A stretch of DNA of 64,000 bases from a virus. This document shows, piece after piece, positions 38,020-40,028 of this stretch; position 1 is the stretch's first letter, and the number at the start of each line of letters is the position of its first letter. The notes beneath the pieces were generated by a model that was given only the letters and a program-made list of their open reading frames with translations, was not told where the DNA came from and searched no databases. A program made the position numbers and the translations under genes. The stretch spans positions 1 to 64,000 of IMG/VR virus record IMGVR_UViG_3300045973_000445, one strand, 5' to 3'.

Positions 38020-38864
38020 CAATCTAGAAAAGACTCCGTGCTTTTGATATCCGTGTAGCTCCCCAAAGCCTTTCCGATTATAGCCGTTTTCAGGGCAAGC
38101 TGAAGGGCACTGGGCGCACCAGCTCCTGGTTCGGGTATAGCTGTCTCATTAAGGATAGTTACCAAAGCCTGAAGCAAGTCGTTTGTCTTATTGAGCTGTG
38201 TTTGCAGTTCATCCCCTTTAACCATCGCCTCTGATCCAGTATTGATCTTAAATGTATCTTCTACCTCCAGAGTAGCTGTTTTGGATTTCAAAGCCAGTGC
38301 TTCCTTAGCCTCTATGCTGACATCTTTACTAGATACAATCTTAAGGGTGTCATCCAGTTCTATATTGATGTTTCCATTACAGCGAAGATTAACAACAGCT
38401 GTCCTGTCTTTATTGGCTACTGATATATTAAGCTGGCTCAGTGATCCTCCGTTTACTGTTAAGTTTAACACCCCTGTCTTGGCATCTCCAGATACTGTAA
38501 CAGAACCATCTCCTAGGATTTCGGTGATCTTAAAAAATCCTTCCCGTAGCAACTGGGACTCATCCTCCTTTGAAAGCACCCCGATTACCATCGGAAGTCC
38601 ATTGTTTGGATCCATCAGGAACATCACACAGCTACCCAGCTTTTTATAATCTGCTGGGAACTCAATATCTCGAATAGCTGACTTTGTTATATAGCACTCA
38701 TGGCTTACTCCTCCTCCTTTTTCAATCAAGATCGATACCCTTTCCCAGCGATAGCACTGTTCTATAAAAGTAGCCCGATCTACATCTGATGGGAGTATGA
38801 TATAACCATACTGTAGTCCTCCATAGTACTGAGATGATTTTATGGGATGTGGTCTATTGTTCAT
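38019..38864 (-). CDS. baseplate central spike (gpV/gp138-like)
   Basis: OB-like N-terminus (PMVIGVL), beta-helix-like C-terminal half, EAMVKGD; downstream of the hub. Confidence 0.7.
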   Translation of the reverse strand: MNNRPHPIKSSQYYGGLQYGYIILPSDVDRATFIEQCYRWERVSILIEKGGGVSHECYITKSAIRDIEFPADYKKLGSCVMFLMDPNNGLPMVIGVLSKEDESQLLREGFFKITEILGDGSVTVSGDAKTGVLNLTVNGGSLSQLNISVANKDRTAVVNLRCNGNINIELDDTLKIVSSKDVSIEAKEALALKSKTATLEVEDTFKINTGSEAMVKGDELQTQLNKTNDLLQALVTILNETAIPEPGAGAPSALQLALKTAIIGKALGSYTDIKSTESFLD

Positions 38865-40028
38865 GGGATTACGCTAAATGTCAAATATTTGATGTATATT
38901 TGTGTATGAAATTGACATTGAAAATAAAACTTTTGCCCACTCCAGAGCAATTTATTTTTCTTAAAGATACATTGATAGAAGCTAATAATGCTTGTAATGC
39001 TATTTCTGAAATTTCTTTTAATGAAAAACAATACAATCAATATAAACTGCATCATAGAACATACTATGATATAAAACGAGAATTTAATCTTTCTGCTCAA
39101 GTAGTAGCTCGTTGCATTAGTAAAGTAGCTAATGCTTATAAATTGAATAAAACTATTAAAAGTGAATTTAACCCACTTGGTGGTATTACATATGATGCTC
39201 GAATTCTTTCGTATGTTAAAAAAGGTATTTCTTTGTGGTCTGTTGGGGGTAGAATTAAAGTTCCCTTTATTTGCCATAATCAAAACTATATCCCTTATAT
39301 AAAGGGAGAGGCTGATTTGGTATTTAAAAAGGATAAGTTTTATCTTTTTCAAACAGTAGATGTTCCCGAAGAGGGTATTAGAGATGTGGAAGAGTTTATT
39401 GGTGTTGATTTTGGACAAACTGACATAGCAGTATTGTCTGATGGGACTAGTTTTAATTCTGAACAACTTAAAAAAGTTCGTAAAAGATATTCTAAAGTAA
39501 GAACAAGTATTCAATCCAAAGGCACAAAAGGAAGTAAGAAACTTCTGAAACGGCTTAGTGGGAGGGAAACTCGTTTTGTTTCTATTAATAATCACACAAT
39601 AAGTAAACAAATAGTAGCAAAGGCCAAAATAGAAAACAAAGGAATTGCTATTGAGGATTTGACAGATATTCGCAAAACAGCAAAGCCAAAAAGTAAAGTA
39701 CAAAAGACAGAATTGAATCGTTGGAGTTTCTTTCAACTCCGCACTTTTCTGACCTATAAGGCATTGCTCAATGGAGTTAAATTGATTGTAGCTCCTCCCG
39801 CCTATACCTCTCAGACTTGTAATGTTTGTAATCATATTGGTATTAGAACTGGGAAATACTTTAGATGTAAAAATTGTGGTAATATAGCAGATGCAGATCA
39901 TAATGCTGCTCTGAATATAGCTACATGGGGGTGTTCTATAAATCACCCTGAAAAATCGACTATGTTTTGCTCTTTGCATTCATTGTTAGGTTTAAAACTT
40001 ATCTAATTCTAATTGATTGGTGTTTTAT
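38865..40028 (+). mobile_element. transposase-less IS200/IS605-like (IS1341-type) TnpB element, 1164 bp
   Basis: Opposite orientation to the operon; ATGGGAT at both borders (38863-38869, 40027-40033); removal restores an ATGA overlap between hub and spike genes. Confidence 0.8.
38906..40006 (+). CDS. tnpB: TnpB RNA-guided endonuclease
   Basis: MKLTLKIKL start, RuvC-I GVDFG, RuvC-II IEDL, TSQTCxxC/CxxC zinc finger, RuvC-III DADHNAALNI; TATATTTG box just upstream. Confidence 0.95.
   Translation: MKLTLKIKLLPTPEQFIFLKDTLIEANNACNAISEISFNEKQYNQYKLHHRTYYDIKREFNLSAQVVARCISKVANAYKLNKTIKSEFNPLGGITYDARILSYVKKGISLWSVGGRIKVPFICHNQNYIPYIKGEADLVFKKDKFYLFQTVDVPEEGIRDVEEFIGVDFGQTDIAVLSDGTSFNSEQLKKVRKRYSKVRTSIQSKGTKGSKKLLKRLSGRETRFVSINNHTISKQIVAKAKIENKGIAIEDLTDIRKTAKPKSKVQKTELNRWSFFQLRTFLTYKALLNGVKLIVAPPAYTSQTCNVCNHIGIRTGKYFRCKNCGNIADADHNAALNIATWGCSINHPEKSTMFCSLHSLLGLKLI

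Follow-up and report, generated by a model that had tools for sequence, protein, structure and literature searches.

Within a 64,000-nucleotide (nt) stretch of the virus record IMGVR_UViG_3300045973_000445 (here, the window; the whole record spans 86.9 kb and is 64% complete), we examined a TnpB-only element of the IS200/IS605 type, designated W, which lies between an upstream tail-module gene ("hub") and a downstream gene ("spike") that are both read from the opposite strand. Antisense to its nuclease gene, tnpB, W carries an open reading frame (ORF) of 372 codons in exact codon register with tnpB. Comparison with 66 non-redundant relatives indicates that this stop-free antisense frame is a trait of the whole clade and not of W alone, and we are nearly certain that selection keeps the frame open. 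As to what the frame serves, we hold with moderate confidence that it would let ribosomes travel across the element and preserve coupling between the flanking genes.

The antisense frame of tnpB and its conservation

The antisense ORF, which would form a bridge between the two flanking genes, occupies positions 38861 to 39979 on the minus strand. It starts at an ATG 49 nt inside the right end of the element, runs through tnpB and the left end, and stops on the TGA of a flanking ATGA. The ATG (39979) shares the hub's frame and lies 45 nt past the hub stop codon (40027 to 40025); three in-frame stops intervene. The TGA (38863 to 38861) overlaps the spike start codon (38864 to 38862). Codons that read as stops on the opposite strand (TTA, CTA, and TCA) occur in the frame of tnpB only at 38840, 38861, 39980 (TCA), 39986 (TTA), and 39992 (TTA). 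An earlier sequence-only reading of the window had described this arrangement, and the description holds: its coordinates and register for the ORF agree with the ORF listing, as do the placement of the start relative to the hub and of the stop on the spike ATG; the codon table returns the same 28 Leu and 24 Ser codons with no TTA, CTA, or TCA; the last eight sense codons do contain TCA, TTA, and TTA, at the three positions just given; and the "original ATGA coupling point" that it postulated is present in an element-free relative described below. The suspected codon avoidance is likewise borne out numerically. Under the codon usage of 59 further ORFs from the window (which comprise 19,267 codons, 4.6% of them TTA, CTA, or TCA), the probability of finding none of the three in 372 codons is 2.4e-8, and it is 4e-9 given the 28 Leu and 24 Ser codons. 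The longest run without these codons elsewhere in the window is 226 codons, in the plus-strand gene at 19348 to 20406. Separately, the minus-strand gene at 50285 to 51169, with a G+C content of 0.307, holds only four TTA, CTA, or TCA codons in 294.

Relatives of the W element were gathered by profile search, which supplied 24 loci from species genomes, mostly metagenome-assembled genomes (MAGs) of Bacteroidota, and the best 80 of 136 viral relatives. Eight partial or interrupted loci were removed from the 106 examined, and the remaining 98 were reduced to 66 non-redundant elements with TnpB protein identities of 51 to 72%. Codons were counted over the tnpB "body," defined as the gene minus its last 25 codons, and ORFs adjoining the elements of these relatives (68,769 codons) provided the flank baseline. 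Among the first 13 viral loci, whose TnpB proteins are 57 to 71% identical, 10 had no TTA, CTA, or TCA anywhere in tnpB, two had them only within the last 10 or so codons, and one (L014) had three internal ones. Across all 66 bodies, the three codons were found 9 times in 22,846 codons (0.04%) versus 5.2% in the flanking ORFs, and 62 bodies were entirely free of antisense stops. TTA accounts for 5 of 1,830 Leu codons in the bodies and for 1,946 of 5,854 in the flanks, where it is the commonest Leu codon; ATA, GTA, ACA, GCA, and CCA, by comparison, are not depleted in the bodies. Under flank codon usage, an open body has a probability of about 1e-8 per element.

The depletion is specific to one of the three antisense frames, with 9 stops over the bodies in the frame registered with tnpB versus 1134 and 2090 in the other two. 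It also continues beyond the gene. In the non-coding left ends of 53 elements (2,061 codon positions), the registered frame holds 31 stops versus 156 and 145, and 35 of the 53 left ends are open in that frame, compared with 2 of 53 in either of the others. Because the depletion reaches into this non-coding DNA, translation of tnpB itself is ruled out as its cause.

More general explanations of the depletion were also rejected. A codon-usage quirk of tnpB, or avoidance imposed by tRNAs, is ruled out by the depletion of the left end in the same frame and by the 5.2% in the flanks, and frame-independent avoidance of motifs, for example words resembling the target-adjacent motif (TAM), by the high stop counts of the other two antisense frames. 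The depletion is not a general property of TnpB genes either. Controls from other TnpB clades were taken from a Pfam-based search of 201 Bacteroidota genomes, and those with a G+C content of 0.39 to 0.47 contain 11 (L122), 13 (L130), 16 (L123), 18 (L131), 11 (L132), 5 (L138), and 4 (L129) antisense stops; it is the AT-rich members with 11 to 18 that rule this candidate out. Two of these controls, L122 and L123, share a genome with a member of the W clade (L121) that has 0 antisense stops. High-G+C TnpB genes have 0 to 4, as their composition predicts, and are uninformative.

We next consider what has been conserved. Each four-fold degenerate third position of tnpB doubles as the first position of an antisense codon, and in pairs of relatives with at most 60% identity these positions agree at a frequency of 0.31 to 0.38, versus 0.32 expected from independent draws. 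Conserved Leu columns of the alignment switch among TTG, CTT, CTC, and CTG, and conserved Ser columns switch among the five allowed codons. Since synonymous sites are near saturation, it is the openness of the frame that is conserved and not the antisense protein. The predicted antisense product of W is rich in isoleucine, phenylalanine, serine, threonine, asparagine, lysine, leucine, and tyrosine and has no match in Pfam or PHROG.

Three elements contain at least two internal antisense stops (L014, L029, and L160), and all of them lie outside an antisense-operon context. This distribution fits decay of the frame where it would not be needed, although a firm test would need more than three cases. 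As an observation apart from these, the element at positions 2501 to 3619 of a Chitinophagaceae MAG contig (L017) has a tnpB with a premature stop after 23 codons, the remainder still matching in the same frame. Its registered antisense frame is open over 381 codons, so that a broken nuclease gene coexists with an intact filler frame.

Junctions, orientation, and the role of the frame

The ends of the elements align the antisense frame with the genes on either side. The motif TTCAT occurs at most 200 nt upstream of tnpB in 53 of the 66 relatives, and its reverse complement, ATGAA, contains both a start codon and a stop. The first stop of the antisense frame is the TGA of this ATGAA in 27 of 66, and the ATG of ATGAA opens an ORF of at least 60 codons, or one that runs off the contig, in 37 of 66. 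Where downstream genes were called, the frame meets them at ATGA (W, L003, and, at distance 0, ten others), at TGATG, at TAA-ATG, or across gaps of 6 and 20 nt. In 27 of the 39 loci with a single TTCAT, the length of the left end is in the phase that places the TGA in frame (P = 5e-6, uncorrected for relatedness); the left end of W has a length in phase 2, and the ATGA is therefore kept in frame. At the other end, the open frame of the clade starts about 47 nt inside the element, after conserved in-frame stops. The antisense ATG, complementary to a conserved His codon close to the C terminus of TnpB, lies within 0 to 4 codons of an in-frame stop in 33 of 50 elements. A TAA supplied by the right end closes an upstream frame of at least 60 codons in 23 of 50, as it does in W; thus, about half of the insertions entered overlaps of the ATGA type. 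Elements of the clade are also oriented preferentially against their surroundings: the right neighbor is antisense to tnpB in a ratio of 44:10 (P = 3e-6) and the left neighbor in a ratio of 39:11 (P = 9e-5).

From these sequence features we propose the following course of events. The mRNA of the host operon would read through the backward element, and ribosomes would start at the conserved antisense ATG shortly past the upstream gene's end. By translating the 1.1-kb filler frame they would cover the transcript, so that Rho-type polarity and decay would be avoided, and they would terminate on ATGA, where the downstream gene could be started by termination-reinitiation. The insertion would then cost the phage little, and the element would persist. 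In keeping with the published TnpB model, TnpB and its guide RNA would cut sibling genomes that lack the insertion and thereby spread the element by homing. Rho prefers C-rich, G-poor untranslated RNA; the C/G ratio of the antisense RNA is 1.32 in W, and the clade median is 1.15. Counts from a scan for promoters and terminators were within shuffle expectation. For the clade as a whole, we lean slightly toward a combined strategy of "translational stealth," in which TTCAT would mirror ATGAA, the commonest start context, the right end would regenerate the upstream stop, tnpB would have been recoded without TTA, CTA, and TCA, and a filler cistron would bridge 1.2 kb with a hand-over at ATGA, leaving the element translatable in both orientations.

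Several observations weigh against ribosome transit as the function of the frame. Its weak point is initiation at the antisense ATG, which in W is separated from the hub stop by 45 nt and is preceded by three in-frame stops and by the complement of the hairpin at the right end. According to passages of the review by Brown and Wade (2025; PMC12548453), coupling usually fades beyond 30 to 40 nt, although one study cited there observed it at much longer spacings. Weak terminator-like hairpins on the minus strand inside the element number 3, versus 1.8 ± 1.4 expected. No more than 27 of the 66 elements stop exactly on ATGA, and some frames end inside the left end. In the L083 lineage (positions 1688 to 3622 of L083 and eight near-identical loci), the antisense frame continues into the downstream ORF for a total of 645 codons, and its translation would yield an N-terminally extended fusion, not a stop-start hand-over. 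Copies that are co-oriented with both neighbors (L063, L109, L058, L027, L155, and L156) retain the stop-free antisense frame; in these, tnpB is itself the open frame on the operon strand, and the element is thus translatable both ways. Finally, the binomial P values overstate independence because the loci are phylogenetically related, and the assignments of neighbors and context, made with a crude ORF picker, contain errors: a first classifier misassigned W, and the second was better yet still crude.

The sequence-only reading had itself proposed a filler ORF that lets ribosomes cross the insertion. That idea gains from a frame that is kept open by selection (62 of 66 bodies, the left end, and closed AT-rich controls), that ends at the downstream start in W and many relatives, and that belongs to an element antisense to about four-fifths of its neighbors; the frame is not, however, a local adaptation of W. 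The accompanying expectation that the frame would be open only in operon-embedded copies fails, given the six sense-oriented copies listed above. Homologues in neutral contexts with the same codon avoidance, which had been named as counterevidence, formally exist. As a test this comparison is ill-posed for a mobile element, because the trait travels with the element.

Two rival accounts concern whether the openness itself has been selected. The antisense ORF could be a true overlapping gene that encodes a functional protein of the element, such as a regulator or a membrane protein. Its length, its conserved ATG, and its openness in 62 of 66 relatives would agree with a gene, but four-fold sites are near saturation at identities of 60% or less, and the antisense amino acids drift freely beyond the mirror image of TnpB. 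The prevalence of isoleucine, phenylalanine, serine, threonine, and asparagine is the mirror expected of a gene rich in Lys, Asn, and Glu, the product lacks the Pfam and PHROG matches noted above, and its C-terminal part is read from a non-coding left end that varies from 41 to 187 nt; we regard such a gene as quite unlikely. The frame might alternatively be a by-product without ongoing selection, either because a founder happened to have a chance open frame or because insertions into operons were filtered by survival on arrival, with inheritance thereafter. An arrival filter is expected for any insertion into a dense phage genome, and inheritance would agree with retention of the trait in sense-oriented copies. 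Yet synonymous sites are saturated with TTA still at 5 of 1,830 Leu codons (1,946 of 5,854 in flanks); codons at conserved Leu and Ser columns have been exchanged repeatedly, leaving the forbidden ones unused; the chance of an open body is on the order of 1e-8 per element under flank usage; and depletion of the non-coding left end is confined to the same frame. A by-product of this kind seems very unlikely.

The other two rivals accept an open frame and assign it a different role. Selection could act through the element's own regulation, with translation of the read-through antisense RNA modulating the expression of tnpB or omega-RNA, for instance because it would limit duplexes with the tnpB mRNA or through transcriptional interference, and without serving the host operon. 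Such a transcript necessarily overlaps the tnpB mRNA and the scaffold of the guide RNA, and a role as antisense RNA had also been raised in the sequence-only reading. Self-regulation nevertheless leaves unexplained why the frame crosses the left end and reaches as far as the TGA of ATGAA, why left-end lengths prefer one phase, why the upstream stop is restored, and why about four-fifths of neighbors are antisense, and we judge it unlikely. The stop-free frame could instead make the element a translatable in-frame insert that is tolerated inside genes, as opposed to a bridge between two cistrons. The 645-codon frame of the nine L083-lineage loci, which enters the downstream ORF, is what such an insert would look like. 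In W and most relatives, by contrast, conserved in-frame stops separate the upstream gene from the antisense ATG, the frame as a rule stops at the downstream start or ahead of it, and the empty site of W is a gene junction and not the interior of a gene, all of which makes this role highly improbable.

Relation to known mobile elements

The clade of W is of the TnpB-only IS200/IS605 type and is found mostly in phage contigs and Bacteroidota MAGs. W resembles IS1341-type TnpB-only elements such as ISDra2 and the ISGst elements, as these are covered in the text of 10.1101/2023.03.14.532601, in having a TnpB with RuvC and zinc-finger motifs, an overlap between its structured right end and the end of tnpB, no tnpA within the element, and a homing model of spread. 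That text gives TTTAT and TTCAT as the TAMs of ISGst2 and ISGst5; elements of the ISGst type insert 3′ of a fixed pentanucleotide, and W would likewise have inserted 3′ of TTCAT. For TnpB overall, the same source reports no orientation bias relative to upstream genes, unlike the W clade, in which about 80% of elements are antisense to their neighbors and selection has kept one antisense frame free of stops all the way from the right end to the target motif. The word "antisense" occurs 0 times in the text of 10.1101/2023.03.14.532601. Literature searches, judged at the level of listings and abstracts, gave no account of TnpB elements whose antisense frame is free of stops; orientation or context data in supplements may bear on this.

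Mycobacterial interspersed repetitive units (MIRUs) are short non-coding repeats of mycobacteria with a small ORF that is co-oriented with the host genes. Passages of PMC12548453 describe them as mobile elements that enter at start codons and whose internal ORF is coupled at −4 nt. W shares with them insertion at a start codon, and its internal ORF, too, overlaps the host gene at −4 (ATGA), as is also the case in 27 of the 66 relatives; by analogy MIRUs may be regarded as the closest precedent for the logic of the W clade, the likeness being one of logic only. The bridging ORF of the W clade differs from that of MIRUs in its length of about 370 to 400 codons and in lying antisense to, and in register with, a functional nuclease gene; because of that register, tnpB gave up three sense codons.

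IStrons, in which a group I intron is fused to an IS200/IS605-type tnpB element, use splicing in the sense orientation to lower the cost of insertion. Both they and W carry tnpB, and W too would lower the cost of insertion into expressed genes, but W has no Rfam intron match and lies antisense to its operon, and the remedy we propose for it is translational. If this proposal is correct, the clade would represent a third hiding strategy of selfish elements beside inteins and introns or IStrons, as a translational counterpart to IStron splicing. Host-level selection would then have altered codon choice along the full length of an RNA-guided nuclease gene purely for translatability of the opposite strand, a clear example from nature of selection on an ORF for its openness and not for its product. 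The proposal would also explain how TnpB persists in essential, tightly coupled junctions of phages and operons, and it would offer ATGAA starts and ATGA overlaps as a rule for predicting harmless insertion sites. Gene callers will annotate such antisense frames as hypothetical proteins. The design could be borrowed for insertion cassettes free of polarity, and, the Bacteroidota hosts being poor in Shine-Dalgarno sequences, it makes long-range translational coupling and Rho polarity in such a background directly testable.

Anatomy and insertion site of element W

W occupies positions 38865 to 40028 on the plus strand (1164 bp), has a G+C content of 0.32 versus 0.39 for the window, and is present in a single copy, no others being found in the same virus record. 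Its tnpB (38906 to 40006, plus strand; 366 amino acids) was listed as an ORF from 38834 to 40006, and the ATG at 38906 (MKLTLKIKLLP), which is common to all homologues, is the likely start. The protein matches PF07282 (Cas12f1-like_TNB) with an E value of 6.3e-22, over the cut-off, and PF01385 (OrfB_IS605) with 27.1 bits, under the cut-off of 30.5. The D-E-D residues of RuvC and the zinc-finger cysteines are intact, and D168, E250, D329/D331, C305, C308, C321, and C324 are invariant in an alignment of W TnpB with eight relatives.

On the left, the element abuts TTCAT (38860 to 38864, plus strand), whose minus-strand complement ATGAA holds the spike start and the TGA of the antisense ORF; judged by its position, this motif would act as the TAM. 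The left end (38865 to 38905, plus strand) is shortened to 41 nt, the shortest of 53 in a range of 41 to 187 nt, and when sequences were compared by eye, it lacked the subterminal hairpin that most relatives possess. Immediately ahead of the tnpB ATG it retains a conserved stretch, TCAAATATTTGA...TATATTTG, which resembles the Bacteroidota −7 promoter box, TAnnTTTG. This likeness hints at a tnpB mRNA that is nearly leaderless and at a host within the Bacteroidota. A search of the 86.9-kb record, 64% complete, gave no PF01797 match and hence no Y1 transposase TnpA. Because of this lack of a Y1 transposase match and of the left-end hairpin, W is a non-autonomous copy that is probably no longer mobile by TnpA.

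The right end carries a terminal hairpin (39997 to 40021, plus strand), presumed to be the 3′ part of the omega-RNA scaffold, followed by GTTTTAT to position 40028; the presumption draws on position and on knowledge of the family. RNAalifold, applied to 16 right ends, predicts 12 pairs in this hairpin, 7 of them with compensatory changes, and the last 159 nt of W folded alone give z = −1.86, a value that does not decide the matter. The right end also matches the conserved terminus of the relatives, GGTAGTTTAY, for which W has GGTGTTTTAT. Rfam gave no match for the element at E values up to 1 (positions 38500 to 40400). The flank from 40029 to 40048 (plus strand), antisense to the last hub codons, is predicted to encode the guide from its position directly after the right end, in line with the omega-RNA model of TnpB in the text of 10.1101/2023.03.14.532601.

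The hub (40025 to 42268, minus strand; 747 amino acids) has a weak PHROG match to phrog_1015, "tail protein with lysin activity" (6.8e-7), and no Pfam match. The spike (38019 to 38864, minus strand; 281 amino acids; ATG at 38864 to 38862) has a weak match to DUF3540, under the cut-off. A related viral contig without the element (L002) encodes a hub homologue with 66% identity followed by a spike homologue, and its hub ends in ...CTGCCATGA, overlapping the spike ATG as ATGA. Because the two genes overlap in this way in the element-free contig, the element (38865 to 40028) is seen as an insertion into the ATGA stop/start overlap of hub and spike. On the plus strand, the left junction of W reads TTCAT|GGGATTACG... 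and the right junction ...GTGTTTTAT|GGGATAAATT. The empty site of L002 fits a clean insertion after TTCAT, although a 7-nt repeat, ATGGGAT, at both junctions (38863 to 38869 and 40027 to 40033) blurs the borders of W and makes their exact positions ambiguous.

The hub now stops at a TAA (40025 to 40027, minus strand) that comes from the right end of the element and replaces the TGA of the original ATGA, and the protein still ends in ...FIP. Read along the operon strand, the hub ends in ATC CC|A TAA, in which the A and TAA derive from the right end of the element, and the antisense ORF ends in ATC CC|A TGA, in which ATGA derives from the flank. The hub and spike proteins are both unchanged by the insertion. 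No near-identical phage record was present among the 50,697 records of a phage collection. A search of sequencing runs for this DNA listed no RNA run and two DNA contig sets, one from a pond metagenome that may be the source and one from a riverine metagenome containing 0.06 of the words. No contig joining across the element, as an insertion-free variant would, was found in these two sets, although contigs cannot show absence.

The minus-strand word ATCCCATAA or ATCCCATGA occurs three times in this region: at the end of the hub (40025 to 40033), at the end of the antisense ORF (38861 to 38869), and within the first spike codons (38842 to 38850; ...CAT CCC ATA AAA...), where the third copy may be due to chance. 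A further stretch of about 34 nt (37986 to 38019), located between the spike and the gene that follows it, recurs twice elsewhere on the same phage contig and may be a repeated promoter or a terminator-like intergenic element.

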